Below, in pieces: positions 2,232 to 62,970 of a DNA stretch of 64,000 bases (position 1 is the first letter of the stretch; the number at the start of each line of letters is the position of its first letter). Source of the stretch: Vicinamibacteria bacterium (lineage in GTDB: Bacteria; Acidobacteriota; Vicinamibacteria; Marinacidobacterales; Marinacidobacteraceae); NCBI GenBank assembly GCA_963668695.2, contig CAXXLQ010000004.1, forward strand, positions 64,001-128,000. Direction: 5' to 3'. The position numbers were made by a program, and so were the translations under genes. The notes under the pieces were generated by a model that was not told the DNA's origin, did not search any database, and saw only the letters and a list, made by a program, of their open reading frames with translations.

Positions 2232-2510
2232 ACAGCGTGAGCCGGAAGCCCGAGCCAGAAGGGCTGGGGGTCGGGTGACCCCGTCCCCCGTCCCTTCCGC
2301 TCCGGGGTCTCCGCGGTGCTGGCGCCCCGCTCCGGAAGCGAGCGGCGATGCATCCCGCCTGAACCGCGACGCTTCGCGTCGCTCATCGTTGCGCTTCGGT
2401 CGGAATACACCAGGTATTCCTCCCTCGCGCGCCTTGTCAGCCGGGCGCCTCGCCCCCACCGGGAGGACTGGCCGCTCTCGGTGCTCACCTCACCCTATCC
2501 ACGGACTGCC
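2232..2510. mobile_element. Degenerate MITE copy carrying one 90-bp 'B' unit and one 20-mer insert
   Basis: Shares the core cgttgcgcttcggtcggaatacaccaggtattcctccctcgcgcgccttgtcagccggg with other copies; ~2244-2337 is the reverse complement of the 90-bp unit tandemly repeated at 32221-32580. Confidence 0.7.
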
Positions 2511-2536
2511 AATCATCCAAGAGAGGAAGAAACGGA

Positions 2537-3553
2537 ATGACCAAAGCTCGGAACAACGGAATGGGACGCCGCGAGGCACTCCGTCGCCTTTCGGCCGGAA
2601 CCGGCGGAGCGGCGCTCGGCGCGACCGGAGGGACGGCCTTCGGCGCGGGGGTGGCAGCCTGCGCCCCCATGGGCTCGGAGGCCGCCCCGGACCCGGGACA
2701 GCGGTTCCGGACGATGCTCGGCGCCGGAGACCCGGTGATCTGCCCGGGGGCCTTCGACGTCATCTCGGCTCGCCTGATCGTCGAAATGGGCTTCGAGACG
2801 GTGCTCATCGGCGGAAGCGCCGCGTCCGCGGCGAACTGGGGAGTCCCGGATTACGGACTCGCCTCCATCACCGAGCTGATCGAGATCGCCTCCCGCATCG
2901 CGGGGAGCGTCCCGGTTCCCTGCTTCGCGGACGCCGACGACGGGGGCGGCAGCCCGCTCGCGGTGGCGCGGGCAGTCCGCGGCTACGAGCGGGGCGGCCT
3001 CGCCGCGGTGATGATCGAGGATCACGTCCAGGCGAAACACCTCGGAGAAGGCGGTGTGCTGATCGAGGTGGGCGCGATGCAGGACAAGATCCGCGCGGCG
3101 GTGGACGCCCGGAAGACCGGCATGATGCTGGTTGCCCGCTGCGATTCCGTTTCCATCGGGCAGAGCGAGGCGGAGGCCACGGAGCGAGGCGCCGCCTACG
3201 TCGAGGCCGGAGCCGACCTCCTCTTCTTTGCCGGACTGCCTCCCGAGAGCATGGGCGCGGTAGCAGAGGCGGCCGGCCGGCCGGTGATCGCGAGTGTCCA
3301 CGACACACCCATGACCACTCTCCGGGAAAACCGGGTCCCGCTCGTCCTCTACGCGGGGCAGATGCTCCGCCTCGCCCTCGGGGCGATGCGCCAGGGACTC
3401 CAGGACATCCACGACGGCGCGACCTGGCCCGGCTACGCCGACCGCGCCCTTCCGGGCGACACCTACCAAAACCTCATCCAGTCCGGGAAGTGGCGCGAAG
3501 ACGCCGGCCGCTACAACCTCGTGGATGAGAACGGCCGCCAGGTCCGGGGGTAG
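2537..3553 (+). CDS. Isocitrate lyase/PEP mutase family protein with Tat-like N-terminus
   Basis: GAFDVISARL, GVPDYG, ADADDGGG, MIED, VARCD and AYVEAGAD motifs; GRREALRR followed by a hydrophobic stretch ending in AAC. Confidence 0.85.
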   Translation: MTKARNNGMGRREALRRLSAGTGGAALGATGGTAFGAGVAACAPMGSEAAPDPGQRFRTMLGAGDPVICPGAFDVISARLIVEMGFETVLIGGSAASAANWGVPDYGLASITELIEIASRIAGSVPVPCFADADDGGGSPLAVARAVRGYERGGLAAVMIEDHVQAKHLGEGGVLIEVGAMQDKIRAAVDARKTGMMLVARCDSVSIGQSEAEATERGAAYVEAGADLLFFAGLPPESMGAVAEAAGRPVIASVHDTPMTTLRENRVPLVLYAGQMLRLALGAMRQGLQDIHDGATWPGYADRALPGDTYQNLIQSGKWREDAGRYNLVDENGRQVRG

Positions 3554-3576
3554 AACGAGGCGCGAAACGCCAGCCA

Positions 3577-3680
3577 GGAGCGCCCCCCTTTCAAAGCGGC
3601 ACGCCAGCGCGGAGGAACGCCGCTCTTCAGAGCGGCATCGCCCGCGCATGGGAACGCCGCTCTTCAGAGCGGCATCGCCA
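3577..3680. repeat. REP-like hairpin cluster (GGAACGCCGCT-CTTCAG-AGCGGCATCG x2 plus one degenerate copy)
   Basis: Perfect stem GCCGCTCT/AGAGCGGC at 3614-3640 and 3651-3677. Confidence 0.75.
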
Positions 3681-3751
3681 GCCTGAGGCTGGCGAAACTC
3701 CCGTAGCCATCCCAGACGACGGCGACGGCGCTGCGAAAGAATCCAGGATCC

Positions 3752-4339
3752 GTGAACCCCTTCCCCGGGAAACAGATCACCCCCCGCAACCGGCAGGAAT
3801 GGCGCCGTTGGCTGGCCGCCAACCACGGCACGGTCCCCGAGGTCTGGGTCGTCTTCTACAAGAAAACCGCCCAGCGAGCTGGTCGGCCCACCCTCACCTA
3901 CGACCACGCCGTCGAGGAGGCGGTCTGTTTCGGCTGGATCGACGGCCTCAAACGGCGCGTTGACGACGAACGATACGCCCACCGCTTCACACCGCGGAAA
4001 CCGGACAGCCGGTGGTCGGAGAGCAATCGGGTGCGGCTCGAAAAAATGAGGTCCCGGGGCCTCATGACTCCCACCGGTGAGGAAGCGGTCGAGGCCTCGA
4101 TACGGTCCGGCGCCTGGGAGAAACCCGCGACCTCGGCACCCCCGGACGTCCCGGCGGAGCTACTCGCCGCCCTCGAAAGCGATCCGCAGGCGCGCGCCGG
4201 CTGGTTGAGGCTCCCCCGCTCGGAACGGCGCCGCTACGAAACCTGGATCGGCATCGCCAAGCGGGCCGAAACCCGAGCCCGGCGGCTCACCGAGAGCCTG
4301 GACCTCCTCCGCCGCGGCCAAAAACTCGGAATGCGCTGA
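3752..4339 (+). CDS. YdeI/OmpD-associated family protein
   Basis: WRRWLAANH, AVEEAVCFGWIDG, FTPRKPDSRWS and AKRAETRARR motifs. Confidence 0.88.
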   Translation: MNPFPGKQITPRNRQEWRRWLAANHGTVPEVWVVFYKKTAQRAGRPTLTYDHAVEEAVCFGWIDGLKRRVDDERYAHRFTPRKPDSRWSESNRVRLEKMRSRGLMTPTGEEAVEASIRSGAWEKPATSAPPDVPAELLAALESDPQARAGWLRLPRSERRRYETWIGIAKRAETRARRLTESLDLLRRGQKLGMR

Positions 4340-4368
4340 ACCATCTCCCGCCGGTGTAATTGTAGTTC

Positions 4369-5206: not shown

Positions 5207-5207
5207 G

Positions 5208-6233: not shown

Positions 6234-8057
6234 TCAGCAGCCGACGCAGGCGTTGTTGTTCTTGGCGCCGTAGCTGGCGAGGAGCGCGATCGTTTCCGGG
6301 AACGGATTGATGCGCTGCACCGGACCGTTGGCGAGGTCGATGGTCGTCTGTCCGGTGCGGGCGACAGCCAGCGGGTCAGCGCCGTGGTCGATCAGGTACT
6401 GCACCATCTCGATGTCGCCGCGCGACGCCGCGTGGTGGATCGTGGAGTAGCCGTTGTAGTCGCGAACGGTCGCATCCGCCCCGCATTCCTCCACCAGGTA
6501 TTTCACCGCCGGCAGCCACGCGTCGGGCGCGTGCCGGTGAGAGTTCGCGGCGAGTCCGAGGCCGTATCCCACTCCGGCCGCTGCATGGAGCGGGTAGACC
6601 GCCGGATCCCCATACTCGGCGGAAGGCAAGCCCGACGGATCCGGGGCTCCCTCTTCGATGAGCATCGGGAGACGACGACGCTCCGGCACCTTGACCGTGG
6701 GGAGGTGGGGATCCGCCCCGTTCGCCACCAGCAGCTTCATGGCCGGGATGTCGAGCGAATAGGCGGCGCGCCAGAAGGCGGTCGCTCCGCTGCGGTCCAC
6801 CCCGAGTTGATCCACGTCGTACACCGTGTACCAAAGCGAATTGTCGATCCGCGCGTTCACGTCGGCACCGGCGTCGATGAGCACCTGCATGAGTTCGAGA
6901 TGCGAGACCTCCTGCTGCAGGTAGTCGGCCGGCTGCGGGTGACGCGCTTTCGGGATCCACTGTGTGTTGATCGTCCCGTAGAGCGGAGTCGCGTTCTGCG
7001 AATCCGCCATCGTCGGGTCGGCGCCCTGCTCGAGCAACCTCATTGCGAGGTCGAAATGACCGTTGATCGTCGCCATGAGCAATGGGGTGGTGCCGCTTCC
7101 CTCGGCGCGCTGGTTCAAGTCAGCGCCGGCGTCGAGCAGCGCCAGCGCGCTGTCGATCTGGCCTTCGCGGGCCGCAAACAGGAGGGCGGTCAACCCGCCG
7201 TGGGTGCCGACGCGTTCCTCGTAGGTCTTGGGCTTCGGCTCGTTCGGATCACGGCTCTCGTCCAGGTCGGGGTTGAGCGGATCCGGGTTGAGCGGATCCG
7301 GGGGAAGACCGGCAGCACCCGTGCTGGTCCCGCTCTTGCCGACGCGGTCGGTCCCGTTGGCGGGGAGCGGACGCTCGGCCTGGATGATGCCGGTCCCTCC
7401 GCGCACCTCGGCAAGACGGGCCTGCCGCTCGCGGCGCTCTTCCCGGTCGAACCGCGAACGCTCGACGACGTCCAGGACATCCGCGGTGGCGGAGGCGTCC
7501 GCGCCGGCGTCCAGCAGGGCTTTGATCGCTTCGACGCGGCCCCGGACCGCTGCGAACATGAGCGGAGTGAGGTCCCACGCGGTTTCCCGCGCATCCACGG
7601 GAGCTCCGTGGTCGAGAAGTGAAACCACCGTTTCAGGGACGCCGGCGGTTGCCGCCAGGTGAAGCGGTTGGGCGCCGGTAGAGGTCATGGCGTCGGCAGG
7701 GGCGCCGGCGTTGAGCAGAGCTTCGGCGACTCCGGCCTTACCGGCCGCCGCCGCCACGTGCAGCGGCATGTGGCTCCCGAGACGCGTGGTGGCGCGGACG
7801 TCCGCACCCGCCGCGATCAAGACCTCCGCAACCTCGCGGTTCCCCGTCTTCGCCGCCCAGTGCAGCGCCGTGAACCCGTCGCCCTGCGCCGCGTTCACGT
7901 CCGCGCCCGAACGCAGCTCCGCCTTCAGCGTCTCCAGGTCACCGCGTTTCGCGGCGTCCAGCACTGGCGACAGCAGCGCCGCATACCCGGCTCCGACCAG
8001 CACTCCCAGCACTGCGAGCAGTGCCGCCAGGCCGATCCATCGCTTTTTGATCTTCAT
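6234..8057 (-). CDS. Ankyrin repeat protein (cassette copy 2), membrane-anchored/exported, C-terminal CVGC
   Basis: Multiple GxTxLHxAA repeats; N-terminal KKRW plus hydrophobic helix. Confidence 0.92.
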   Translation of the reverse strand: MKIKKRWIGLAALLAVLGVLVGAGYAALLSPVLDAAKRGDLETLKAELRSGADVNAAQGDGFTALHWAAKTGNREVAEVLIAAGADVRATTRLGSHMPLHVAAAAGKAGVAEALLNAGAPADAMTSTGAQPLHLAATAGVPETVVSLLDHGAPVDARETAWDLTPLMFAAVRGRVEAIKALLDAGADASATADVLDVVERSRFDREERRERQARLAEVRGGTGIIQAERPLPANGTDRVGKSGTSTGAAGLPPDPLNPDPLNPDLDESRDPNEPKPKTYEERVGTHGGLTALLFAAREGQIDSALALLDAGADLNQRAEGSGTTPLLMATINGHFDLAMRLLEQGADPTMADSQNATPLYGTINTQWIPKARHPQPADYLQQEVSHLELMQVLIDAGADVNARIDNSLWYTVYDVDQLGVDRSGATAFWRAAYSLDIPAMKLLVANGADPHLPTVKVPERRRLPMLIEEGAPDPSGLPSAEYGDPAVYPLHAAAGVGYGLGLAANSHRHAPDAWLPAVKYLVEECGADATVRDYNGYSTIHHAASRGDIEMVQYLIDHGADPLAVARTGQTTIDLANGPVQRINPFPETIALLASYGAKNNNACVGC

Positions 8058-8107
8058 GCCCCGTCCTTCCCTCCGGTCAGAGTCCTCGTTGCGGATTCCG
8101 GTCCTTG

Positions 8108-9496
8108 CTACACCGCCTGCGAAAGCGAGAACGCGCCCGTGCTGTTCCCGAAGGTTTCCAGATCATCCATCCCCAGCTTGTGCGCCAACGTCAGCATCAC
8201 GTTCGCCAGCGGGGTCCCGGGCTCCGCACGCAGGTGCAGGTTGTGCTCCAGCGCTCCGTTCGCGCCTCCCGCCACAAAGAACGGAACACGCTTGTGGTTG
8301 TGGATGTTCGGATCCCCCATCGGAGACCCATACAGGATCATCGTCTTGTCCAGCAGCGTCCGATCCTCTTCCTGAATGCTCCGCAGCTTCTCCATGAAAT
8401 ACGGAACCAGGCTCACGTGATACCGGTTGATCCGGCCCAGAACCTCAACCCGCTCGGGATCGTTCCCGTGGTGCGAGGCCGGATGGAACGCCATCGATTC
8501 GCCGCTGTCCGGATACACCCGGCTCGACGCGTCCCGGCCCAGCTTCAAGCTGAACACCCGCGTCATGTCCGACTGGAAGGCCAGCGCCTGCAGGTCGAAC
8601 ATGATCTTCACATGCTCGTCGAACGAGTCCGGAACCCCTGACGGAGCGTCCGGAAGCTCACGAAGCTCCCCGCTCGTGTTCCGTTCCACGATCCGCTCGA
8701 TCCGACGCTCCATCTCCCGGACGTCCGTCAGGTACCGGTCCATCCGGCGCACATCCTGCGGATCCAGCGCTCCCTTCAGCCGCTGCACCTCCGAACCGAT
8801 GAAGTCCAGAACGCTCCGGCGCGCGTTCTGCCGCGCCACCCGGCCCTCCGGGGTTCCCCCCGCGCCGAACAACTGGTCGAACACGATCCGGGGATCCCGC
8901 GTCATCGGAAGCGGCTCCGTCGGCGACGCCCAACTGATGGTGTCGGTGTAGACGCAGGCATACCCGTAGGCGCAACCACCCGCCTGGTCCACCGTCTCGA
9001 TGCAGAGCTGCATCGAGGGAATCGGTGTGTCCTGGCCGAAACGGTTCGCATACATCTGATCCAGCGAGGTCCCGGCAAAGACATCCGAACTCTCGGTCTG
9101 CTTGGGATACGACTGGGTCAGGAACGCCGCGCTCGAGCGGAAGTGGTCTCCACCGATCTCACGCGCCGTGCGCGCCTCCGCGGGCTCCACATCGCAATCG
9201 CTCACGATCGTGACGTAGTCCCGGACGGACTCCAGGGAGCTGAGCGCACCCTTCGACAGATCGAAGTCCGCGCCCTCTTTCTCCGGAGTCCACAGATGCT
9301 GCGATCGGCCGTACTTGTTGCTGCCCGCCGACCCGTGAACGATCTCGATCGCCACGAGCCGCGTCGGATCCTCTGCGGTCGGCTTCGCGATCACGCTCGC
9401 CGGAACCATCGCGTCCAGGAACGGCAACGCGACCGTTGCTCCCGCTCCCCGAAGGAACGTCCGCCGTGGGAGGCTCTTGCCGGTCAGATAGTTCAT
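8108..9496 (-). CDS. DUF1552 family protein (cassette copy 2), Tat signal
   Basis: RRTFLRGAGATVALPFLDAM N-terminus; LAFQSDMTRV, HPASHH, TLLDKTMILYGS..GD.N.HNH motifs. Confidence 0.88.
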   Translation of the reverse strand: MNYLTGKSLPRRTFLRGAGATVALPFLDAMVPASVIAKPTAEDPTRLVAIEIVHGSAGSNKYGRSQHLWTPEKEGADFDLSKGALSSLESVRDYVTIVSDCDVEPAEARTAREIGGDHFRSSAAFLTQSYPKQTESSDVFAGTSLDQMYANRFGQDTPIPSMQLCIETVDQAGGCAYGYACVYTDTISWASPTEPLPMTRDPRIVFDQLFGAGGTPEGRVARQNARRSVLDFIGSEVQRLKGALDPQDVRRMDRYLTDVREMERRIERIVERNTSGELRELPDAPSGVPDSFDEHVKIMFDLQALAFQSDMTRVFSLKLGRDASSRVYPDSGESMAFHPASHHGNDPERVEVLGRINRYHVSLVPYFMEKLRSIQEEDRTLLDKTMILYGSPMGDPNIHNHKRVPFFVAGGANGALEHNLHLRAEPGTPLANVMLTLAHKLGMDDLETFGNSTGAFSLSQAV

Positions 9497-9788
9497 GGTG
9501 TTCTCCTGTCAGGGCGCCCCGCCGTCCCGGTGTTCCGGTGGGGCTGGAGTCGCTGTGTAGAGAGCCCGAGATCCTCGGGTGACTTGGATGATCCGGCCCA
9601 GGGTGGAACCGGCTGGGGACCCGCCGTTGCAGGGATACGCCCCCCACAAAGTACGGGATCGATGGGCTCCCATAACCGGACTAGGATAGGAAATCAACCG
9701 TCCCGGCGCAAGGGGCATCCGGCCCGGTCGAGAACTGCTGCGAGAGCCGACTCCGGGAACCGGAGAGCGCCCCCCCAAGAGGAGGAGA

Positions 9789-12341
9789 TCAGGGCTCGCC
9801 CGCGACCGTGGTTTCGATCTCTGCGGGGACCCCGCCCTTCATCTGGAAGGCCGGGCTCGTCGCCACCCCCAGGATGAACGCTGACATCCGGTAGTCCGAA
9901 GCCTCCGCCTGCCGGACGATCTCCCGGATCAGCGGCTGATCGAAATACTCCACCCGCCGGCCCAGCGCGTACGCCATCAGGTTCTCCGTGAAGGTTCGAA
10001 GCAGCGGCGTCGGACGCTTCAGCAGCGCCTCCCGCAGGTCCCCGATGTTCTGGATCGGGGTCCCGTCGTAGAACTCACCCGAAGCGTCAATCGGCTGGCC
10101 CGCGTCCTTCACCCGCACTCTGCCCGTCACGTCGAACTGCTCCAGCGCCAACCCGATCGGGTCCATCATCCGGTGGCACGAACGGCACGCCGGGTTGTCC
10201 CGGTGGATCTCCAGCCGTTCACGCGCGGTCAACTCCCGGCCGTTCTCCGACGCTGCCGTCGCGTCCAGATCCGGAACGTCCGGCGGCGGTGGCGGCGGCG
10301 GACTGCCCAGCAGAACCTCCATCACCCACTTCCCACGAAGCACCGCCGACGTCCGATACGGATGGGACGTCAGCGTCAGCATGCTCCCGTGGGCGAAGAT
10401 CCCACGCCGGTTCGGGTCCTGATACGACACCATCCGGTGCTCCGGACCGGCAATCCCCTCCATCCCGTAGTGCTTCGCGAGGCGCTCGTTCACGAACGTG
10501 TAGTCCGCGGTGAACAGGTCGAAAACGCTCCTGTCCTCCGTCACCAGGTGCTGGAAGAACCGCTCCGTCTCCTCCACCATCGCCGTCTTCAACTGCTGGT
10601 GGAAGTCCGGATACAACCGAACGTTCGGGTTGATCTTCTCCAGATCCTGCAGCCGGAACCACTGATACGCGAACCGCTTCGCCAGCGCTTCCGAGCGCGG
10701 GTCCGCGAGCATCCGACGAACCTGGGTCTCGAACGCCGCAGGATCCGACAACTGCCCCGCCTCGGCCGCATCGAGCAGCTCGTAGTCGGGGATCGTCCCC
10801 CACAGGAAGAACGACAGGCGCGACGCCAGGTCGGTATCCGTCAGCCGGTACCCGAACTCCGCCTCCCGCGGGTCCAGCGGCTCCTCGATCCGGAACACGA
10901 AGTTCGGGCTCGCGAGGATGCCCTCCACTCCCATCCGGATCCCTTCTTCGAAGCCGACCGTCTCGGCCCCCACGTCGTAGAGCAACATCAGCGCCGCCCG
11001 ACTTTCGTCGTCGAGACTCCGGCGATAGGCCAGCCGGCCCAACCGCGAAAGGATCTCCTCGGCGCACGGCCGTGCTTCGTCCGCTGCCAGCGGGCGGCAG
11101 GCGAAGATCGCCTTTCGGCTCGGCGTCTCCGACACCCCCGTGGTGTCGAACGGTCCCCGAACCAGAATGTCCCGCAGATGGGGAAGGCTGTGGATCCCGT
11201 AGGTGAGCGCGATGTTGGTGCTCGCCAGCGACCATTCGTGCGGCGAGATCAGATCCAGCGTCGCGCCGTCAAACTGGCGCAGGAACGCAGCGGCCACCGT
11301 CCTGGGACCGGCCTTGATGAAGAGGGGCTCCGTGATCATCGTCGCCCCGTTGGGATCCGAGGTGTGCATCCACGGGTCGATGGAGAGGAGCGCGACCCGC
11401 TCTCCGTCGATCGAGATCTCGAGCTGTTCCGGGTTCTCCTCGGAGTTCAACGCTCCGGCGGCGGTGCCGACGACAGGGCCGCACACTTCGTGGTGCAGCG
11501 AAACGCGGAAGACGTAGTTCCCGTCCGCGGCAAAGGTGTGATCCACTGCGATCCCGCCGCGGGTGCCGTACGGGGCTCCCTCGACCTGAACCCGCTGCGA
11601 AGCCCAACGGGAAACGAAGTAACTGGTCTCGGCCGGTGCGGCGTCGGGGTCCCCTACGGCCAACCGGCTGATCTCGCCCGCCGCGCGCAGATAGGAGTCC
11701 ATGAGCGTGGCCGACAGCAACTGGACATCCGCGATGTTGTCGAAGTTCGCGCTGATCGTGTCCTGCGGCAGATACTCGGCGGCATCCACGGCGAGCGCCA
11801 GGAGATCCCGGATGGCCGCCGTGTACTCCGCCCGGTTGAGCCGCTGGAAAGAACGGCGTCCCGGATTCGGTTTCGCCTCCGCGCTCGCATCAAGCTGGGT
11901 TTCGAGCGACCCGGCGACCTCGGCGAGCACCTCCTCTCCGGGGCGCCGGGCCCCCGGCGGCGGCATCATGCCGAGCCGCAGCTTCGAGACCATCTTTTCC
12001 GCGAGGGCGGCATCTTCCGGCGCGTTCCCGGCGTCGAAACCGGAGAGCGTCATGTTCCCGGTCTTCATGCGGTCGTTGTGGCAGACCATGCAGTAGGTCC
12101 GCAGCATCCGGTTGTGGGCGGCCGCGTTTTCGGGGGACACCGCCACAACGGCGCGCTCCGTCGCTGACGGCTCCCAGGACCGAACGGTGGCGACCGTCGG
12201 CCCGGAAGCGGTGGGCTCCGATCCTTCCAGCCGGGCCAGCCGGGCTTCAAGCCCGGGCGCCGCCGCCGCGACGGAAGACGCGAGCAGGCCGGCGAAGAGA
12301 ACCGGAATCAGCGAAACCGCTTCCAGCCTGGATGTCCCCAT
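9789..12341 (-). CDS. DUF1592/DUF1588/DUF1587-type c-type cytochrome protein (cassette copy 2)
   Basis: CMVCH and CRSCH heme motifs; RLNRAEY, LASRLSFFLW, LRGKWVMEVLLG-PPPPPP and YALGR motifs. Confidence 0.88.
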   Translation of the reverse strand: MGTSRLEAVSLIPVLFAGLLASSVAAAAPGLEARLARLEGSEPTASGPTVATVRSWEPSATERAVVAVSPENAAAHNRMLRTYCMVCHNDRMKTGNMTLSGFDAGNAPEDAALAEKMVSKLRLGMMPPPGARRPGEEVLAEVAGSLETQLDASAEAKPNPGRRSFQRLNRAEYTAAIRDLLALAVDAAEYLPQDTISANFDNIADVQLLSATLMDSYLRAAGEISRLAVGDPDAAPAETSYFVSRWASQRVQVEGAPYGTRGGIAVDHTFAADGNYVFRVSLHHEVCGPVVGTAAGALNSEENPEQLEISIDGERVALLSIDPWMHTSDPNGATMITEPLFIKAGPRTVAAAFLRQFDGATLDLISPHEWSLASTNIALTYGIHSLPHLRDILVRGPFDTTGVSETPSRKAIFACRPLAADEARPCAEEILSRLGRLAYRRSLDDESRAALMLLYDVGAETVGFEEGIRMGVEGILASPNFVFRIEEPLDPREAEFGYRLTDTDLASRLSFFLWGTIPDYELLDAAEAGQLSDPAAFETQVRRMLADPRSEALAKRFAYQWFRLQDLEKINPNVRLYPDFHQQLKTAMVEETERFFQHLVTEDRSVFDLFTADYTFVNERLAKHYGMEGIAGPEHRMVSYQDPNRRGIFAHGSMLTLTSHPYRTSAVLRGKWVMEVLLGSPPPPPPPDVPDLDATAASENGRELTARERLEIHRDNPACRSCHRMMDPIGLALEQFDVTGRVRVKDAGQPIDASGEFYDGTPIQNIGDLREALLKRPTPLLRTFTENLMAYALGRRVEYFDQPLIREIVRQAEASDYRMSAFILGVATSPAFQMKGGVPAEIETTVAGEP

Positions 12342-12350
12342 CGTGGCGCC

Positions 12351-14360
12351 TCAGCAACCCACGCAGCGGTTGTTGTTTTTCGCCCCGTAGGTCTCGAGGA
12401 GGGCGATGGTCTCCGGGAAGGGGCTGATCCGCTGCACCGGCCCGTTCGCCAGGTCCACCGTGGTCTGCCCGGTCCGGGCGATTGCCAGCGGGTCGGCGCC
12501 CTTCGAGATCAGGTATTCGATCATCTCGTTGTCGCCCCGCGAGGCCGCGTGGTGGATCACGCTGTAGCCGTTGTGGTCACGGGCGTCGGGATCGGCGCCC
12601 AGCTCTTCCACGAGGTACTTCACGGAGGGCATCCAGGCGTCGGGGGCGTGGCGATGCGAGTTCGCGGCCAGCCCGAGCCCGTACCCGACGCCGGCAGCGG
12701 CGTGTACGGGATGGACCCCGGGGCCCCCGTGGAGAACCTCAGGGAGGCCCGAGGGATCTTCCTCAGGCTCTTCCGCCGTCAGGTCGGTCAGCCCCCGGAG
12801 GGTCCGCTCGGGAACCTTGATGGTCGGGATCCCGGGGTCCGCGCCGCGCGCGACCAGCATCTTCATCGCGGGGATGTCGAGCGCGTAGGCCGCGCGCCAG
12901 AAGGCGGTGGCCCCGGCCCGGTTCACCCCGAGCTGGTCGGTGTTGTAGGTGCTGTACCACTGCTTCCGCTCGAGCCGGGAGTTCACGTCCGCCCCGGCAT
13001 CGATGAGCGCCTCCATCAACTCGATGTGCGAGGTCTGCTGGCGGAGGTGATCCGCGGGCTGGGGATGGAAGGGTTGCGAAATCCAGCGGGCGTTGATCGC
13101 GCCATACAGCGGAGCGCCGCCGGAGACGTTCTTCAGGTTCGGGTCCGCACCGCGTTTGAGCAGTTCCATTCCGATGTCGTAGTGGCCGTTGATCGCCGCC
13201 ATCAGGAGAGGTGTGGTGCGGTGGCCCTCGGCCCGCTGGTTGATGTCGGCCCCACCGTCCATGAGGGCGACGGCGGCTTCCAGATGGCCGTCACGAGCGG
13301 CGAGCAGCAGAGCCGTCAGGCCGCCGTGCGTCCCGACCAGTTCGGCGTAGCGGAGCGGCTGGAGGCGGTTCCGGTCCCGCTTCCTGCTCGCTCTCCGCTT
13401 CTTTGCCTCTTCGATGGCCTTGGCCCTGGCGAGTTCGTCCTCGGGATGACCGTGCGCCTCGGCGTGTTCGTCCTTCTCCGCCTTCAGGTCCGGGGCAAGG
13501 TCCTCGGCAAGGTCCGGGGAACCGGATTTCCCGGTGCCGGCGTCGGCTCCCGTGGAAGCGGTCGCGGGGGCCTCCTCGATGCGTCCCTTCTCGTTCGCCG
13601 CCTTGGCGGCCGCGGCCCGCGCCCGTCGCTGGGCCTCCCGGGCCTTCTTGTCGCGTTCCCGCTCGTCGTAGATCACGCCCGCTGCGCCCCGTCCCTGGTC
13701 GATCCGCGCCTGGCGAGCCCGACGCGCGATGAGATCCCGCTCGGCGCGGGCCGCGACGTCCAGTACCGAAGCGGTGATCGAGGGATCGGCGCCCGCTTCC
13801 AGAAGCGTCGCGACGGCCGCGGTGCGGCCCACGGCGGCCGCGAACATGAGCGGGGTCTGTCCCCACTGCGGCTCGACGGCGTCGAGGTTGGCGCCATGCT
13901 TCCCCAGCACCGTGAGGGTCGGTGTGCTGCCGGAAGCCGCGGCGAAGTGGATCGCCCGGGCTCCGGTTCCGGTCGGCTCGGCGATCGGGGCGCCGGCCTC
14001 GAGGAGGACTTCGGCAACTCCCGCCTGGCCGGCCGCCGCCGCCACGTGCAGCGGCATGTGGCTCCCGAGGCGCGTGGTGGCGCTGATGTCCGCACCCGCC
14101 GCGATCAAGACCTCCGCAACCTCGCGGTTCCCCGTCTTCGCCGCCCAGTGCAGCGCCGTGAACCCGTCGCCCTGCGCCGCGTTCACGTCCGCGCCCGAGC
14201 GCAGCTCCGCCTTCAGCGTCTCCAGGTCACCGCGTTTCGCGGCGTCCAGCACCGGCGCGAGCAGCGCCGCATACCCGGCTCCGACCAGCACTCCCAGCAC
14301 TGCGAGCAGTGCCGCCAGGCCGATCCATCGCTTTTTGATCTTCCGCTTTCCAATCTTCAT
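12351..14360 (-). CDS. Ankyrin repeat protein (cassette copy 1), C-terminal CVGC
   Basis: Paralog of 6234..8057 with a longer charged linker. Confidence 0.92.
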   Translation of the reverse strand: MKIGKRKIKKRWIGLAALLAVLGVLVGAGYAALLAPVLDAAKRGDLETLKAELRSGADVNAAQGDGFTALHWAAKTGNREVAEVLIAAGADISATTRLGSHMPLHVAAAAGQAGVAEVLLEAGAPIAEPTGTGARAIHFAAASGSTPTLTVLGKHGANLDAVEPQWGQTPLMFAAAVGRTAAVATLLEAGADPSITASVLDVAARAERDLIARRARQARIDQGRGAAGVIYDERERDKKAREAQRRARAAAAKAANEKGRIEEAPATASTGADAGTGKSGSPDLAEDLAPDLKAEKDEHAEAHGHPEDELARAKAIEEAKKRRASRKRDRNRLQPLRYAELVGTHGGLTALLLAARDGHLEAAVALMDGGADINQRAEGHRTTPLLMAAINGHYDIGMELLKRGADPNLKNVSGGAPLYGAINARWISQPFHPQPADHLRQQTSHIELMEALIDAGADVNSRLERKQWYSTYNTDQLGVNRAGATAFWRAAYALDIPAMKMLVARGADPGIPTIKVPERTLRGLTDLTAEEPEEDPSGLPEVLHGGPGVHPVHAAAGVGYGLGLAANSHRHAPDAWMPSVKYLVEELGADPDARDHNGYSVIHHAASRGDNEMIEYLISKGADPLAIARTGQTTVDLANGPVQRISPFPETIALLETYGAKNNNRCVGC

Positions 14361-14411
14361 GCCGCGTCCCTCTCTTGGGTCAAAGTCCCTGATGTGGATC
14401 CCGCTCCCGGG

Positions 14412-15800: not shown

Positions 15801-15883
15801 CGCTGTCTCCTTGTGGTCAGACTGACTTTCTCTCTTGGCTTTCTCGTTTTGACTCTTCTCGGTTTGATTCTCTGTAGGGCTTC

Positions 15884-22237: not shown

Positions 22238-22240
22238 ACG

Positions 22241-50299: not shown

Positions 50300-50416
50300 C
50301 CTCCGGCGGACGATGCCGGCCGGACTCCCCCGCGCGCCTTGTCAGCCGGGCGCCTCGCCCCCACCGGGAGAACTGGCCGCGCTCGGCGCTCACCCGGGTT
50401 CCACCACCGGCGGTTC
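50300..50416. mobile_element. Partial MITE copy overlapping the GH3 gene 3' end
   Basis: cgcgcgccttgtcagccgggcgcctc-[20-mer]-...gctcacccgggttccaccaccgg. Confidence 0.7.
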
Positions 50417-52003
50417 CCCCTCTTCCCAGAGGCGCGGGTAGAAGGGCTGGAACTTGAACTGGGAGTCAACGTGGGCTGAGCCTCCACCGGAGGCGCGCGG
50501 AAGGAAGTCCGAGAGCTCAAGGGTTGAGCAGCGGACTCCACCGAGCCGGCGGCTCGCACGCTTGGCGCGGTATTCGAGGTTCTGATTCCCGAGAAGTTCA
50601 TCGAGCCGCTCGGGGAGGCCCTCGGGGAGGCCCTCGGGCAGGCCGCCGGGCTCGCGCGACGCCGGGCGGACCGCCGCGAGGTGGTAGCAGGGAAGCGCAT
50701 CTCCTGCGGGGTTCGAAGGAAAGAGCGCGAGCCAGAAACGCTTCCGGAGTCCCGGGAACTCGCAGTCCAGCGCCGAGAACGCGCGCTCAACGTGCCCGGC
50801 GGTGAGCTTTTCCCCGGTGAAGGACCAACCCAGGCCTCGCCGGCGGACAAAACGGAGATCCGGATGTCCGCCGACGAAGCGCGCGACCCGAAAAAGATCC
50901 CCGGTCGCGTAGCGCCGGAGGCCGAAACCGTGGCTCACCACCATTTCGTACGTCTCCCCCGGCCGCAGGTCGCTGGCGCCCAAGAGGCTTGCCTCGGATC
51001 CCAGGCTTGCCTCGGATCCCGGCTCGAGGAACTCGTAGAAGACGCCGGGTGCGGCCGGTAGGAACGCCGTCTCTCGCTCCCGGTAGTCGGGAACGGTCTC
51101 GATCGTCTCGGTGGACATCGAATACATCGGCTCCCGGGTGAAACGCGATGCGGGGAGGCGGCGGTCGAGCCGCTGCAGAAACGGACCCACCGCGCCTCCG
51201 GTCCAGCAGACGTAGGTCGTGACGCCGGGCGCCCAGGCCGTGATCGGCAGTGGCTCGGGACTTTCCGCCACCCGGAGGAGCCGCTTCCGCGATCCCATCG
51301 AAGCGAGCTTCCGGAGGAGCCGCCAGACGGACGGGTGCAGGCGCTCAGGTTCCCGGACGACCCGCCGAACGAGCGCGGAAGCGTTCTCCCAATCGGCGTC
51401 GAGCTCTTCGAAGAACCCGCTCAGCGTGGAGGGGTTCGTTGCGTAGAGGACTCCCGGATTCGACAAGGTGAGGACCAGGAGACGAAGCGCGGCCGCGCCG
51501 TACTGCTCTTTCAGATCCTTAAGCGCCGGATCCGACTGCGCCCGGTAGGGCGCCTGCAGCAGGATGAACCACGGAGGCGCGCGGCGCTCGCTGACGAGCA
51601 ACCAGCTCAGCGAGCGATCCGGATCGAGAGCGCCGAAGACGTAGAGGCTGGGACGCCGGATCCGCCGGCGCGCGACGAGGCGAAGCATCCCGTCCACGAA
51701 AACGCCGCGGGTCGCCGAGAGCCGCTGTCGCGGGTACGCGACGCGCTTGGGCTCGCCCGAGGTGCCGGAGGTGAGCGCCACGGGGGTCCCCGCCCCGTCA
51801 CCCGAATCCGCGGAAGGCAGTTCCCGGGTGAGCGGCGTCGCGGGGGTGATTCCAAAGCGCCGCCGCAGCCGCCTTTCCCGGAGCGGATGGATCGTCAGAC
51901 GTACGCGGTGGCGAAGGACGGCCGCCCGCCCCGCCAGCCGCAGCACGAGTGCGATCGCTGCGCGTCCGAGGTCATTCGCGAGGCCCCGGGCCTCGCGGCT
52001 CAT
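50390..52003 (-). CDS. GH3-family acyl-adenylate-forming ligase
   Basis: LTSGTSGEPK, YSMSTE, FYEF, GLRRYATGD, GEKL and NLEYRAKR motifs; start re-called to ATG 52003. Confidence 0.82.
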   Translation of the reverse strand: MSREARGLANDLGRAAIALVLRLAGRAAVLRHRVRLTIHPLRERRLRRRFGITPATPLTRELPSADSGDGAGTPVALTSGTSGEPKRVAYPRQRLSATRGVFVDGMLRLVARRRIRRPSLYVFGALDPDRSLSWLLVSERRAPPWFILLQAPYRAQSDPALKDLKEQYGAAALRLLVLTLSNPGVLYATNPSTLSGFFEELDADWENASALVRRVVREPERLHPSVWRLLRKLASMGSRKRLLRVAESPEPLPITAWAPGVTTYVCWTGGAVGPFLQRLDRRLPASRFTREPMYSMSTETIETVPDYRERETAFLPAAPGVFYEFLEPGSEASLGSEASLLGASDLRPGETYEMVVSHGFGLRRYATGDLFRVARFVGGHPDLRFVRRRGLGWSFTGEKLTAGHVERAFSALDCEFPGLRKRFWLALFPSNPAGDALPCYHLAAVRPASREPGGLPEGLPEGLPERLDELLGNQNLEYRAKRASRRLGGVRCSTLELSDFLPRASGGGSAHVDSQFKFQPFYPRLWEEGEPPVVEPG

Positions 52004-52029: not shown

Positions 52030-52272
52030 GCCGCCGGTGGACAGAGCCAGGCGGCCCAGTTCTCCCGGTGGGGGCTCGGCCGGCGATCCATCCCGGCTGA
52101 GCGCTGCGCCCCACTTCGCTCGTCGTTGCGCATCGGTCGAAATAACCCGGGCCAGTTCTCCCGGTGGGGGCTCCTCCCTCGCGCGCCTCGTCAGCCGGGC
52201 GCCTCGCCCCCACCGGGAGAACTGGCCGGCCTCGGCGCTCACCTTGCTCTGACCACAGGCACCCAGGGCTGT
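52030..52272. mobile_element. MITE copy with three 20-mer inserts inside the desaturase-GH3 operon
   Basis: Shared core with degenerate termini; 20-mers at 52056, 52152 and 52206. Confidence 0.75.
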
Positions 52273-54426: not shown

Positions 54427-54632
54427 CTAGCAGCCTGTGGACAAGGTCACGCGGCGTTCGGCTGGCGATGCATCCCGGCTGAACCGCGCCTCTGTGAGGC
54501 GCTCATCGTTGCGCTTCGGTCGAAATACACCAGGTATTCCTCCCGCGCGCGCCTTGTCAGCCGGGCGCCTCGCCCCCACTGGGAGAACTGGCCAGCCTCG
54601 GCGCTCACGCCACTTTGTCCACAGGCTACTAG
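54427..54632. mobile_element. MITE copy with CTAG duplication and one 20-mer insert
   Basis: CTAG-CAGCCTGTGGACAA ... TTGTCCACAGGCTA-CTAG. Confidence 0.85.
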
Positions 54633-58036: not shown

Positions 58037-59462
58037 GAACTCCACGCTCTGGCGGGGTCTGTTGCGGGGACTCCACGCTGGAGCGGGGCCGGCGGACGGG
58101 AACTCCACGCCGGAGCCGCGAAGCTCCACGCTGGAGCGGGGCCGGCGGGCGGGAACTCCACGCTGGAGCCGCCGAACTCCACGCTGTAGTGGGATCTGCC
58201 GGCGGGAACTCCACGCTGGAGCCGCCGAACTCCACGCTGGAGTGGGATCTGCTGGCGGGAACTCCACGCTGGAGCCGCCGAACTCCACGCTGGAGCAGGA
58301 TCTGTTGGCGGGAACTCCACGCTGGAGCCGCCGAACTCCACGCTGGAGCGGGATCTGCCGGCGGGAACTCCACGCTGGAGCCGCCGAACTCCACGCTGGA
58401 GCAGGATCTGCCAGCGGGAACTCCACGCTGGAGCCGCCGAACTCCACGCTGGAGCAGGATCTGTTGGCGAGAACTCCACGCTGGAGCCGCCGAACTCCAC
58501 GCTGGAGCAGGGATCTGTTGGCGGGAACTCCACGCTGGAGCCGCCGAACTCCACGCTGTGAGCGGGATCTGCTGGTGGGAACTCCACGCTGGAGCCGACG
58601 AACTCCACGCTGTAGCAGGATCTGCTGGCGGGAACTCCACGCTGGAGCCGCCGAACTCCACGCTGGAGCAGGATCTGTTGGCGGGAACTCCACGCTGGAG
58701 CCGCCGAACTCCACGCTGTAGCGGCATCTGTCGGCGGGAACTCCACGCTGGAGCCGCCGAACTCCACGCTGGAGCGGGATCTGCTCGGCGGGAACTCCAC
58801 GCTGGAGCCGCCGAACTCCACGCTGGAGCAGGATCTGTTGGCGGGAACTCCACGCTGGAGCCGCCGAACTCCACGCTGGAGCGGGTCTGCTGGCGGGAAC
58901 TCCACGCTGGAGCCGCCGAACTCCACGCTGGAGCGGGATCTGTTGGCGGGAACTCCACGCTGGAGCCGCCGAACTCCACGCTGGAGCGGGGTCTGTCGGC
59001 GGGAACTCCACGCTGTAGCCGCGGAACTCCACGCTGTAGCGGGATCTGTTGGCGGGAACTCCACGCTGGAGCCGCCGAACTCCACGCTGGAGCGGGATCT
59101 GTTGGGGAACTCCACGCTGGAGCCGCCGAACTCCACGCTGGAGCGGGGTCTGCTGGTGGGAACTCCACGCTGGAGCCGCGGAACTCCACGCTGGAGCGGG
59201 ATCTGTTGGCGGGAACTCCACGCTGGAGCCGCCGAACTCCACGCTGGAGCAGGATCTGTTGGCGGGAACTCCACGCTGGAGCCGCCGAACTCCACGCTGG
59301 AGCGGGGCCGGCGGACGGAACTCCACGCTGGAGGGGGTTCGGCGGATGGGGACTCCACGCTGGAGGAGGTGGAACTCCACGCTGGAGCCGCGAAGCTCCA
59401 CGCTGAAGCGGGTTCGGCGGGCGGGAACTCCACGCTGGAGCCGCGAAGCTCCACGCTGGAGG
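58036..59462. repeat. Tandem array of ~23 x 53-bp units (about 54 copies of the CTCCACGCTGGAG core)
   Basis: Consensus GGGAACTCCACGCTGGAG-CCGCC-GAACTCCACGCTGGAG-CRGGATCTGYYGGC; units start at 58098, 58151, 58204 ... 59264, with degenerate edges. Confidence 0.95.
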
Positions 59463-60532: not shown

Positions 60533-60543
60533 AATCGGTCCCG

Positions 60544-61078: not shown

Positions 61079-61122
61079 GTACGAGGTCTCCCGAGATTCG
61101 CAGTGGCTATTCCAAGAAGCGC

Positions 61123-61139
61123 ATTATCGCACCGATAAT
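61123..61139. promoter_or_regulatory. Palindromic operator upstream of parDE
   Basis: ATTATCG-CAC-CGATAAT inverted repeat in an AT-rich patch. Confidence 0.6.
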
Positions 61140-61512
61140 CATCATTTTCATGTCGAAATCGGATCGGGCCGGGGATGAAGTACGCAACGACACTATAGGC
61201 CTCGCCCGCCTCCGGCGGGCGAGGCCGGCCTCCACCGGGAGAAACGCCCATGATCGGGTCCTCCCGTACACCCCGCCTGGTACGAAAAAGGTGGAGCGGC
61301 ACTCACATTGGCAGAGCCCGGCATCATCGGCGCTGGTTTCGCGCTCCCGCGCGATGCCGGCCCCCACCGGGAGAACTGGCCGGAGGTCGGCGTTCCCGTG
61401 CCTGCGCGCCATCCGCTCTTTCGGGGGCCCGGCGCGACTGGATTTTCACAGCAACTGGCCGGCGGTCCCGTGCCCACGCGCCTCCCCGACAGGCGCCGCG
61501 CCCTCCAGGCCG

Positions 61513-62700
61513 TCACCCGAGGTCGAGCGCTGCCGGCGAACACAGCGTCCAGCGTTCCCGGATGCGAACCGGTTGCTCTGGCGCGGTGAGGGAAACGACC
61601 TGTCCGGGCTGCCAGTTCGGGTCGGAGATCCGGTCGAGCGGGGCCAGGCGGTCGTGGCGGGGCGAGCCCAGCTTGACCTCGACCGGCCAGACTCTGCCGG
61701 CGTGCTCGATCAGGAAGTCAATTTCCTGGCCGTCGCGGGTGCGCCAGAAATAGATGTCCACCTCGTGCGCCCGATGGCGAAACTGCCGGAGGATTTCCGA
61801 AAACACCTGGGTCTCGAACAGGGCGCCGGCCATCGGCCCGAGACGCGCCTGCTCTGTGCTCCTCCAACCGCCGAGCCAGGCGGCGAGACCGGCATCCAGG
61901 AAGTAGAGCTTCGGATTCTTGGTCATCCGGCGCGTCCGGTTCGTGAAGTACGGAAAGAGCAATCGGATGAGAAAACTGTCTTCCAGCAGGCTGAGCCATT
62001 CCCGAACCGTTGTCGGGGACACGCCAGCGTCCCGCCCCAAATCGTGGTAGTTCACGACCTGGCCGGTGCGGAGCGCGGCGAGCCGCACGAACGTTTCAAA
62101 CTCCCGGCGTTTGCCGATTCTCAGCAGTTCGCGAACATCCCGCTCGATATAGGTCTGCACGTAGGAGGCAAGATAGAGATCGCGGGTGGCCCCATCCCCG
62201 GTTCCGGACAACCGCGGGAAGCCGGTCTCGAGCATTCTGCCGAAGTAGTCGCCGGGTGACAGCAGGTGGGGCAACCTCTTTTCCTCATCCGAGAGCCCGA
62301 GCAGGTTCAGGATCGCGACCCGGCCGGCCAGGGTCTCGGTCACGCCTTCCATCACCCGGAAGTTCTGTGAGCCGCTTAACCGGATGGCGCCGGGTTCGAG
62401 GCCACCCTCGTCCACCATCCGCTTGATGGGGCTGAGCAGCTTCGGCGCATACTGGATTTCATCAATTACGAACGGCGGTCTGAGGTCGCGCATGAACAGA
62501 ACCGGATCCCGATTGGCGCGCTCGCGGACGTCAAGGTCGTCCAGGTTGGCATAGGTGTGGCTTCCGGAGCACCGATGGAGCAGCGAACTCTTGCCGACCT
62601 GTCGCGGCCCGAGCAGCAACCACACCGGGAAGAGCCGCAGCTGCTCGGCCGGAGCGTCGAGTACCGGTTGAAGGGTCCGGTGGATCCAGTCGAGCGGCAT
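61513..62700 (-). CDS. ATP-binding protein, AAA_14 + DUF4143
   Basis: GPRQVGKS, IDEIQ, LSGS, ETLAGR, TYIERD, KLYFLDAGL, EIDF and EVK motifs. Confidence 0.92.
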   Translation of the reverse strand: MPLDWIHRTLQPVLDAPAEQLRLFPVWLLLGPRQVGKSSLLHRCSGSHTYANLDDLDVRERANRDPVLFMRDLRPPFVIDEIQYAPKLLSPIKRMVDEGGLEPGAIRLSGSQNFRVMEGVTETLAGRVAILNLLGLSDEEKRLPHLLSPGDYFGRMLETGFPRLSGTGDGATRDLYLASYVQTYIERDVRELLRIGKRREFETFVRLAALRTGQVVNYHDLGRDAGVSPTTVREWLSLLEDSFLIRLLFPYFTNRTRRMTKNPKLYFLDAGLAAWLGGWRSTEQARLGPMAGALFETQVFSEILRQFRHRAHEVDIYFWRTRDGQEIDFLIEHAGRVWPVEVKLGSPRHDRLAPLDRISDPNWQPGQVVSLTAPEQPVRIRERWTLCSPAALDLG

Positions 62701-62827
62701 ATGTGCAGTTTACTTTGGATCTGCCGCTCACGAGGATCAAGAAGATCTCGCGCTTCCCGCCAGCGGCGAATGGCGGCCTGGAGGCCGGCGGTCCCTTGCC
62801 GGCGCGCCGTACCGGGGCCGGCGGTCC

Positions 62828-62970
62828 CTAGCAGCCGGTGGTGAAACCCAGGCGGCCCAGTTCTCCCGGTGGGGGCTCCTCCCTCACGCGCCTTGTCAGC
62901 CGGGCCCCCACCGGGAGAACTGGGCCTCGCCGCCCTCGGCGCTCACCCGGGTTCCGCCACCGGCTGCTAG
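62828..62970. mobile_element. Internally deleted MITE copy with CTAG duplication and two 20-mer inserts
   Basis: CTAG-CAGCCGGTGGTGAAACCC ... GGGTTCCGCCACCGGCTG-CTAG. Confidence 0.85.

Follow-up and report, generated by a model that had tools for sequence, protein, structure and literature searches.

The window analysed here is a 64,000-nt stretch of a Vicinamibacteria bacterium (positions 64,001 to 128,000 of contig CAXXLQ010000004.1), and the element in question is a fixed 20-nt sequence, hereafter the 20-mer, that is dispersed over the window inside other repeats. The window is ordinary chromosome with a G+C content of 66-71%. Its 36 open reading frames (ORFs), called with a rule based on G+C at third codon positions (GC3) and compared with Pfam, include transporters, peptidases, ankyrin-repeat proteins and members of the DUF1501/DUF1552 families. 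No Rfam family reached its gathering score in the window, and no transfer RNA or transfer-messenger RNA was found there. Counting as a copy any match to the 20-mer with at most two mismatches, we recovered 22 copies on both strands, a density of 1 per 2.9 kb, and none in 100 dinucleotide-preserving shuffles of the same 64 kb.

An earlier account of the window, made from its letters alone (the sequence-only reading), had counted 22 copies by hand, and all 22 starts were recovered. It had described most copies as exact, four as carrying one substitution and the dimers as containing an 18-nt unit; in our count 15 of the 22 are exact and 7 have one mismatch. Four of these seven are true substitutions (A15G at both 2452 and 22153, G10A at 28468, C9T at 54572), and the other three (22171, 32056 and 43434) are the GG-starting second units of dimers with an 18-nt period. 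Its placement of every copy in a miniature inverted-repeat transposable element (MITE) or in a hairpin or remnant resembling a repetitive extragenic palindromic (REP) sequence agrees with an automatic rule, which assigned 18 copies to MITEs and 4 to REP-like hairpins; the copy at 28468 was scored as MITE by this rule on 3 k-mers and is REP-like by reading. The four positions within the MITE, here slots A to D, and the presence of empty MITE alleles in the same window (26807-26992 and 45304-45488) were also borne out. The features of the window that bear on the 20-mer are as follows.

2452-2471, plus strand: 20-mer with A15G, MITE slot A; host MITE about 2344-2507, minus strand.
22026-22045, minus strand: 20-mer, MITE slot D; host MITE about 22017-22238, minus strand.
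22153-22190, plus strand: MITE slot B, dimer of a 20-nt (A15G) and an 18-nt unit.
25180-25199, plus strand: 20-mer immediately 5' of a two-unit REP-like hairpin (GCCGACCTCCAGGTCGGC).
26700-26719, minus strand: 20-mer, slot A of a partial MITE (26661-26806) that abuts the empty MITE.
26807-26992, plus strand: empty 186-nt palindromic MITE, the reference allele; DNA fold -57.3 kcal/mol, z -5.1.
28468-28487, plus strand: 20-mer with G10A in a REP-like remnant (..GGTTCCC^CCGGCGTTCCC..).
32056-32093, minus strand: dimer (20 + 18 nt), MITE slot B; host MITE about 32044-32247, plus strand.
32121-32140, plus strand: 20-mer, MITE slot C; inverted relative to 32074-32093, with which it pairs over 20 bp.
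43434-43471, minus strand: dimer (20 + 18 nt), MITE slot B; host MITE 43386-43625, plus strand.
43499-43518, plus strand: 20-mer, MITE slot C.
45304-45488, minus strand: second empty MITE allele, 85% identical to 26807-26992 over 185 nt.
46625-46644, minus strand: 20-mer in a REP-like hairpin, at the point where the loop meets the 3' arm (GCCGGTCTGAAG^CGGC).
50357-50376, plus strand: 20-mer, slot A of a truncated MITE (about 50325-50417).
52056-52075, minus strand: 20-mer, slot D; host MITE about 52033-52266, minus strand.
52152-52171, minus strand: 20-mer, slot C of the MITE at about 52033-52266.
52206-52225, plus strand: 20-mer, slot A of the MITE at about 52033-52266.
54572-54591, plus strand: 20-mer with C9T, slot A; host MITE about 54448-54632, minus strand.
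61228-61459, plus strand: long form, 232 nt, non-coding; a 16-mer (1 mismatch to 20-mer nt 1-16), then ACGCCCATGATCGGG..., ending ...TTTTCACAGCAA, then CTGG.
61360-61379, plus strand: 20-mer nested in a REP-like unit within the long form; two related loci (L082 and L091, see below) have 1 nt at the same site.
62857-62876, minus strand: 20-mer whose flanks are those of slot C on the left and of slot D on the right; about 98 nt of MITE lost between two direct copies.
62904-62923, plus strand: 20-mer, a single unit in slot B of a short MITE (about 62834-62970) that is also the host of 62857.

All 22 copies lie outside the Pfam-supported parts of ORFs, either between genes or in unsupported 5' extensions of over-long ORF calls, the latter being the case for 28468, 52056-52225 and 54572. 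The family is sharply bimodal in the window, with no tail of decayed copies: a scan with the 18-nt core that allowed up to five mismatches returned 18 sites with none, 4 with one, none with two or three, 7 with four and 23 with five, against a background, summed over five block-shuffles, of 9 with four and 84 with five. The 20-mer alone has a DNA fold of -1.4 kcal/mol, makes no hairpin of its own and is not a palindrome. Its termini are unrelated (GCCCCC versus CCAGTT, the reverse complement of the last six bases), so that it has no terminal inverted repeats.

The 20-mer extends well beyond this contig. An exact-match scan with one genome per species gave at least 91 stretches of 8 kb (loci L001, L002 and so on); only these blocks around the matches were available for comparison, and no stretch among the 91 listed overlaps the window by 400 nt or more. 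The window and loci together (783 kb) hold 259 copies, 170 exact, 63 with one mismatch and 26 with two, proportions that are biased in the locus set by its choice through exact matching. Among the matches listed, the exact 20-mer occurs in at least 15 independent assemblies, comprising four of 'Candidatus Marinacidobacterium' (phylum Acidobacteriota, class Vicinamibacteria), three labelled 'Vicinamibacteria bacterium', seven metagenome-assembled genomes labelled 'Acidobacteria' or 'Acidobacteriota bacterium', and one contig binned as Gammaproteobacteria. These assemblies differ in accession series and contig-naming style, and chromosome-level ones are among them. The REP-like contexts of the 20-mer in the gammaproteobacterial contig (L035, JAKZVH010000183.1, 6141 nt) match those in the acidobacterial genomes, and this contig is probably mis-binned.

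Across the set, base 1 of the 20-mer varies (G, C or A), positions 3-20 are constant at 95-100%, and conservation collapses at both borders. The sole linked double change is a 'dialect', C6T plus T18C, which among the matches listed is confined to two assemblies (9 and 2 copies); the two positions cannot pair with each other, and the pattern looks like a subfamily derived from a changed source. For the 257 copies with full flanks, the automatic rule gave MITE for 205, REP-like for 37, a position beside other copies only for 3 and elsewhere for 12, and several of the last 12 also adjoin hairpins or diverged repeats. The 20-mer is a real, lineage-wide and very short dispersed repeat of Vicinamibacteria, namely of 'Ca. 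Marinacidobacterium' and its relatives.

The main host is a 186-nt MITE with terminal inverted repeats of about 23 nt that folds as one long imperfect hairpin. In two species with 93% identity it is present at L058 856-1051 but missing from the orthologous intergenic site of L083 (about 6465-6472), so that this MITE has moved since the two diverged. Several further MITEs differ between species in presence or position at syntenic loci, and the MITE had no match in the plasmid collection. For the 20-mer itself no orthologous filled and empty pair was found, flank searches at syntenic loci returning mostly paralogous MITE copies.

Comparison of filled and empty paralogues defines the insertion precisely. 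BLAST matches to the empty allele, chained over the window and loci, gave 119 pieces, and the 97 that cover at least 100 nt have quantised lengths of 196, 214, 232 and 250 nt (10 nt of padding included). When the 81 of these 97 that are 185-260 nt long were aligned, five insert blocks were exactly 18 columns wide and one region spanned 54 columns. The insert has 20 conserved bases and yields a net gain of 18, so two target bases are replaced. The same was seen when the 40-nt flanks of the 257 copies were compared with every other sequence of the window and loci: the gap from flank to flank was 20 nt in 1927 pairings, 2 nt in 1495, 1 nt in 198 and 3 nt in 31, the pairings not being independent events. 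The flanks of the copies fall into 64 left and 55 right clusters. Filled as well as empty alleles exist for at least 11 unrelated slots, with 1-3 target bases replaced, usually 2, and no duplication, which agrees with the fixed ends, the loss of 1-3 nt and the several unrelated positions proposed earlier.

The replaced bases are AT in slot C, AC, AT or CT in slot D, GC or AC in slot B and GC, GT or CC in slot E, a position outside the window set; further slots lose GG, TC or TG, TT, or CA, and a single base is lost at slot A and at one REP-like slot. Searching slot C with flank patterns that do not depend on the insert, we found 39 filled alleles and empty alleles with 2 nt (32), 3 nt (1) and 17 nt (1). 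The junctions given by the sequence-only reading for slots A, B and C were correct; for 61360 the empty state is 1 nt (A or G) in two relatives rather than the 'ac' that it had deduced. Besides the four slots of the window, at least five more MITE slots are used in other genomes, and one MITE in L009 carries six 20-mers in 280 nt. Inverted pairs of copies form perfect 20-bp stems, the pairing being dictated by the MITE slots.

The second host is a family of REP-like hairpins (GGGAAC-GCCGACC..GGTCGGC-ACAGC) with at least three slots at the stem foot or at stem/loop borders. The REP-like units also occur in arrays of their own, as a small cluster with a period of 37 nt at 3568-3682 of the window and as six units with a regular tandem spacing of 118 nt in L006 (about 170-830; starts at 202, 320, 438, 556, 674 and 792). 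The third host is the 20-mer itself: nested copies in L008 and L009 replace CA or A between CCCCC and CCGGG, and this nesting of copy in copy explains the 13-nt 'partial units'. Tandem units recur at a period of 18 nt, with up to three units in L069.

The targets show a base preference. In deduplicated flanks the first base after the insert is C at a frequency of 0.67 and G at 0.30, never A, the second is C at 0.72, and T is nearly absent directly before the insert. Of the 17 replaced bases, 10 are unpaired in the predicted fold of the empty MITE, a result that is no more than suggestive; insertion points tend to fall at unpaired or irregular positions of this fold or, in the REP-like hairpins, at stem/loop borders.

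The sequence-only reading also held that the 20-mer is better conserved than its hosts. When slot C inserts were taken only from the window or from loci with a further exact copy, which keeps the subset free of ascertainment, they had 3 mismatches in 680 nt. Per-column diversity at slot C is 0.007 in the insert, compared with 0.025 in the nearest 10 nt on the left and 0.089, 0.098 and 0.148 elsewhere in the flanks of the same copies. The direction of the claim thus stands, but the contrast is smaller than it suggested: a handful of hypervariable columns accounts for the host diversity, and the majority of MITE columns hardly vary either.

A further claim, that copy after copy had been 'stamped' into its host, was not supported. 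Slots A-D are filled alike in the window and in three 'Marinacidobacterium' genomes, and the A15G variant recurs in six sources. A quick maximum-likelihood tree covered 78 MITE backbones and 155 columns, after the columns of the insert and three gappy rows had been taken out. On this tree the occupancy of slot D takes 6 changes against a shuffled mean of 23.4 (minimum 18) and that of slot C takes 13 against 24.1 (minimum 16), which suggests that these fills were largely inherited within MITE subfamilies. Since slots A-D and A15G are common to four genomes and occupancy of D, and partly of C, tracks the subfamilies, most copies would have been inherited with the host repeat. The hybrid at 62857, with slot C on its left and slot D on its right, is also found in other genomes, which indicates that direct 20-mers recombine with one another and so reshape their host MITEs. 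Most copies were probably not written one by one; they were carried by host repeats that amplify and recombine, and the true insertions were probably few.

The 20-mer has a longer partner, which was found through two copies with a seemingly diverged 3' end. This long form is a non-coding family of 211-435 nt, and six complete members are at hand: 61228-61459 of the window, L019, L027, L079, L082 and L091. In each, nt 1-16 of the 20-mer come first and lead into ACSCCCATGATCGGG...CACCCCGCC, a sequence-conserved 5' module of about 60 nt; each ends with ...TTTTCACAGCAA and then CTGG (CTGA in L019, CTGT in L027). In all six the two joints share AA (GGGAG-AA-ACSCC ... CAGC-AA-CTGG), so that removing the inner part at AA leaves the exact 20-mer; the 20-mer is thus made up of the 16 nt that stand before the inner element and the 4 nt that stand after it. 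The long forms have no terminal inverted repeats and no duplication beyond the shared AA; the left flank ends in GAGAA, the right end of the element in GCAA, and the specificity spans about 16 nt. Their interiors are REP-like units that themselves host nested 20-mers, such as the window copy at 61360. The sequence-only reading had listed 61360 and overlooked that the 20-mer also stands at 61228-61459 as a split flank (16 + 4 nt, shared AA) around this REP-like interior. Long forms total about 13, compared with 259 solo copies in the 783 kb.

Several properties of the long form were followed up. The 5' module was rejected as a structured RNA (-5.1 kcal/mol, one covarying pair) and, by reading the alignment from its conserved ATG, as a coding sequence, in which indels shift the frame and stops fall at differing places. 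Only weak subterminal stems of 3-4 bp are predicted, with almost no covariation. Rfam returned nothing at E values up to 1 around the L027 long form and only sub-threshold chance matches at 61100-61550 of the window. A guide-like match of at least 7 nt between the long-form interiors and the 20-mer was not found, except for one 7-mer in L019. At 61238-61253 of the window, and equivalently in the other long forms, the GGGAG of the 20-mer stands 8 nt upstream of the conserved inner ATG (GGGAGAAACSCCCATGATC), and integration therefore builds an arrangement like a ribosome-binding site. The gene of an autonomous copy, if one exists, might start at this ATG.

These joints suggest that the 20-mer serves as the attachment site of a second mobile element, the solo and long copies being the empty and occupied states of one site. 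The converse reading takes the 20-mer for a remnant of the long element that collapsed to its two ends, 16 nt of left tip plus 4 nt of right, and is moved in trans by a transposase of that element which we have not seen. It would explain why the sequence of the 20-mer matches exactly the outermost bases of every one of the six full long forms, why solos far exceed long forms, as MITEs exceed their parents, and why the two share slots and borders (L082 with slots C and D, L027 with REP slot R1, L052 with slots H and E); the 5' module, conserved in sequence with neither RNA structure nor coding signal, would then resemble a transposase-binding end.

We ran a sequence-only covariance model of the inner 47 nt, from which the 16-mer was excluded, over all 783 kb. 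It returned its 10 training copies, one copy truncated at the 5' end, and nothing else. The 16-mer ahead of the ten intact inner ends has no mismatch in four, one in three, two in one, five in L088 and eight in L084, so that 8 of the 10 are preceded by a 16-mer with at most 2 mismatches. L084 has the second-best, near-consensus inner end (50.8 bits) and yet 8 mismatches in the 16 nt of its supposed tip. L082 stands at a junction with slot C to its left and slot D to its right, which is not a primary insertion site and arises only after two solo 20-mers recombine. This junction and the unrelated flank of L084 favour the inner element as a separate unit. Long-form tips are, moreover, more diverged (at least 12 mismatches in 160 nt) than window solos (4 in 396 nt), and a collapsed origin needs either a recurrent, identical deletion from AA to AA or recognition of a right end of 4 nt. 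We therefore favour, at roughly two to one, an inner element that would integrate into pre-existing 20-mers over a 20-mer that is a collapsed long element; as an account of the whole system we consider the collapsed origin unlikely, though far from negligible.

Putting these observations together, our preferred reading is that a 20-mer with fixed ends would enter irregular, unpaired or stem-border sites of GC-rich hairpin repeats and replace 1-3 bases there. Such insertions would be rare, and a conserved source would keep new copies identical. Amplification of the host MITEs and REP-like units, together with recombination between copies, would multiply the filled slots, and the 0.2-0.4 kb element would enter the 20-mer between GGGAGAA and CTGG with AA shared at both joints. 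The writer of the 20-mer would be a strand transferase with folded single strands as its substrate. The likeliest candidates would be an HUH/RAYT-type enzyme from the REP system and a small site-specific recombinase; the HUH/RAYT-like option is favoured because the hosts are REP-like or palindromic and the cuts lie at stem borders or irregular positions. We put the probability of this reading as a whole (inserted fixed-end module, hitch-hiking, landing site, trans-acting enzyme) at about 0.5. Its descriptive parts, a real inserted module that hitch-hikes on its hosts and serves as a landing site, are jointly very probable, whereas a trans-acting strand transferase encoded elsewhere in the genome is a tentative guess.

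Several results weigh against this reading. Occupancy of slots A/B (20 changes, 23.7 when shuffled) and of slot E (6 against 6.8) is scattered on the 155-column tree; insertions made more than once, gene conversion among the copies or the weakness of the tree could account for this no less than hitch-hiking. Directly after slot C all 32 filled copies compared carry a C, an A-to-C change that none of the 49 empty copies has, and slot C may thus owe its fill to one event in which 21 nt replaced 3. Selection on a binding site could equally explain how little the insert diverges. The deduplicated left flanks hold no conserved tetra- or pentanucleotide, and the 20-mer has neither a hairpin of its own nor a fixed flanking motif, unlike known substrates of HUH transposases.

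The search for an enzyme points the same way. Pfam was applied to the 36 window ORFs and to 19 of the 495 locus ORFs. No transposase, reverse transcriptase (RT), RAYT or integrase was found among the 36, as the sequence-only reading had said of the window, and no transposase or recombinase among the 19, which are those adjoining long forms. An all-against-all comparison of the 495 locus ORFs revealed no multi-copy protein except one unrelated IS630-family transposase. An autonomous copy of the long form may lie outside the sampled 783 kb.

A bolder version of our preferred reading is a two-tier system, in which a dedicated enzyme would write a constant 20-nt attachment site into irregular positions of hairpin DNA, at the cost of 1-3 bases, and the 0.2-0.4 kb element would land there, so that this element or its enzyme would seed its own targets. 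We regard it as unlikely at present. If true, the 20-mer would be the smallest unit of bacterial DNA mobility known, and the reaction, which would involve neither inverted repeats nor duplication and only a small loss of target, would match no characterised transposition chemistry.

A further alternative grants the 20-mer no mobility of its own. It would be a selected protein-binding or regulatory tag, or an uptake-signal-like motif, spread by transposition, recombination and gene conversion of the host repeats. Homologous exchange cannot, however, put the same sharp-ended 20 bases between at least 11 unrelated flank pairs, so an insertion step is needed even here; the 20-mer was never seen arising by point mutation, and we know of no protein that binds it. 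These points make the tag improbable despite the near invariance of the insert (0.007; 3 mismatches in 680 nt), the persistence of one sequence across at least 15 species-level assemblies with a dialect in only two among the matches listed, the perfect 20-bp stems of inverted pairs, the partial tracking of MITE subfamilies and the recombination between copies that does happen at 62857, all of which it would accommodate.

A templated writer is quite improbable as well. In this account hairpins with nicks or breaks would be the place where an RT or other templated polymerase copies a short template of RNA or DNA, by a mode resembling telomerase or target-primed synthesis, and would receive one unit or, occasionally, more. 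Tandems with an 18-nt period (up to three units in L069), partial units anchored at the 3' end (CCGGGAGAACTGG), and target bases that are lost and not duplicated are what such an enzyme might leave, and the bases after a unit, usually C or G and then C, with one extra C at slot C, read as if running into the next unit. Each of the first two points has another side: all tandems were seen in slot B and may be one event, and the partial units are explained by a nested copy that replaces CA or A. Neither the window nor the surroundings of the long forms hold an RT, the first two bases (GC) misfit an 18-nt rolling template, and a graded series of 5' truncations is absent. The chance of a sequencing or assembly artefact (adapter, primer or chimeric joins) is practically nil, as the exact 20-mer recurs in the 15 or more assemblies of differing accession series and naming style, chromosome-level ones included, lies always at defined slots with matching empty alleles, and resembles no adapter known to us.

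The window and loci hold other repeats of a different nature. A tandem array at 58070-59461 has 26 copies of a 53-nt unit with 89% matches and lies downstream of an ORF call of 1199 aa with Sortilin/BNR repeats, and a 90-nt unit occurs about 4-5 times at 32217-32687, directly adjoining the MITE that carries the copies at 32056-32140. The regions 6234-12341 and 12351-18553 are a tandem duplication of a three-gene cassette (ankyrin-repeat protein, DUF1552 protein and PSD-domain protein) with 72-95% identity per 300-nt block. An insertion sequence (IS) of 1147 nt with inverted ends and a DDE_3 (IS630-family) transposase is 100% identical at L001 5476-6622 and L021 4185-5331 of one genome; the L021 copy is inserted at a TA at the extreme tip of a MITE, and the syntenic L041 lacks this IS.

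The 20-mer shares features with several known systems. Like a MITE it is non-autonomous, high in copy number, intergenic and nested, but it has no terminal inverted repeats or target duplication and is far below MITE size; it is the 186-nt host that is a MITE. DNA uptake sequences and uptake signal sequences (DUS/USS) are short motifs that point mutation creates in any part of a genome, including genes, with a density of about 1 per kb, whereas the 20-mer appears to arise by insertion, in intergenic repeats and at 1 per 2.9 kb in the window. IS110-family elements insert at a core dinucleotide. REP sequences are reportedly DNA targets for IS elements (Tobes and Pareja in 2006), and IS1397 is said to insert into palindromic units within bacterial interspersed mosaic elements (BIMEs). 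The long form resembles such REP-targeting or IS110-like elements in having no inverted repeats, only a shared dinucleotide AA and a fixed position in an abundant short repeat; it differs in that only non-coding long forms of 211-435 nt were found, with no cognate recombinase nearby and no guide complementarity. IS200/IS605 elements, including the palindrome-associated transposable elements (PATE), are marked by hairpins near either end and by insertion 3' of a fixed short motif; the long form has a left flank ending in GAGAA and a right end in GCAA that might fit this, together with weak predicted stems of 3-4 bp only and a specificity of about 16 nt, which exceeds what that family needs.

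REP/REPIN-RAYT systems and the mosaic BIMEs of E. coli, as far as they are covered in the relevant part of PMC3116915, are likewise short, intergenic, high in copy number and set in GC-rich hairpin contexts with inverted pairs; they too form mosaics with variably present short modules, and their enzyme acts in trans from elsewhere. The 20-mer differs from REPs and REPINs in being neither a palindrome nor a stem-loop of its own, its inverted pairs being set by the MITE slots, and no RAYT was found among the 36 window ORFs or the 19 ORFs near long forms. To our knowledge REPs do not replace target bases.

The 20-mer is among the smallest insertion units seen in bacteria. Its junction rule is exact (20 nt in, usually 2 out, target C or G and then C), and together with a partner element that the 20-mer splits around, this makes the search for an enzyme concrete. 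Several complete chromosomes carry the 20-mer, among them OZ252286.1, OZ244986.1, OZ246946.1 and contig CBDHFO010000017.1, so a full census is feasible, and perfect 20-bp stems between genes may affect transcript ends in these symbiont-type genomes. Literature searches returned nothing on 'Marinacidobacterium', no account of repeats of this kind from Acidobacteria and no further system resembling the small dispersed repeats (SDRs) of Nostocaceae cyanobacteria (Elhai and co-workers in 2008). The latter, SDR1-8, are reportedly about 21-27 nt long and lie in other repeats, mini-transposons and their own copies among them; SDR4-6 are said to share a hairpin with compensatory changes. Insertion-like repeats of about 20 nt have thus apparently been described once before, with a mechanism that was never found, and the 20-mer represents a second, unrelated lineage.

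The likeness to SDRs is close by description. In both, a unit of about 20 nt with fixed ends is dispersed in many copies (for the 20-mer a net gain of 18 nt, with 22 copies in 64 kb and 259 in 783 kb) and is embedded in other repeats and in its own copies (242 of 257 in MITE or REP-like hosts; nested in L008 and L009), and in both, filled and empty sites suggest mobility (gaps of 20 nt versus 1-3 nt at 11 or more slots). SDRs are briefly described in PMC5861425 and PMC2884548, and the part of PMC5861425 that treats them states that SDR5 may take HIP1 as its insertion site and that SDR-like repeats were not found outside Nostocaceae among HIP1-rich cyanobacteria. A short repeat would thus serve as an insertion site in both cases, HIP1 for SDR5 and the 20-mer for the long form. 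There are differences too. The hosts of the 20-mer are Acidobacteriota of the class Vicinamibacteria, whereas SDRs, in those descriptions and compared by description rather than by sequence, are reported only in Nostocaceae. The 20-mer has a quantified target loss of 1-3 nt and a longer partner element. It also lacks a hairpin (-1.4 kcal/mol; C6T and T18C cannot pair), in contrast to the hairpin attributed to SDR4-6. On these comparisons the cyanobacterial SDRs appear to be the closest precedent of the 20-mer, which would be the same phenomenon in another phylum.

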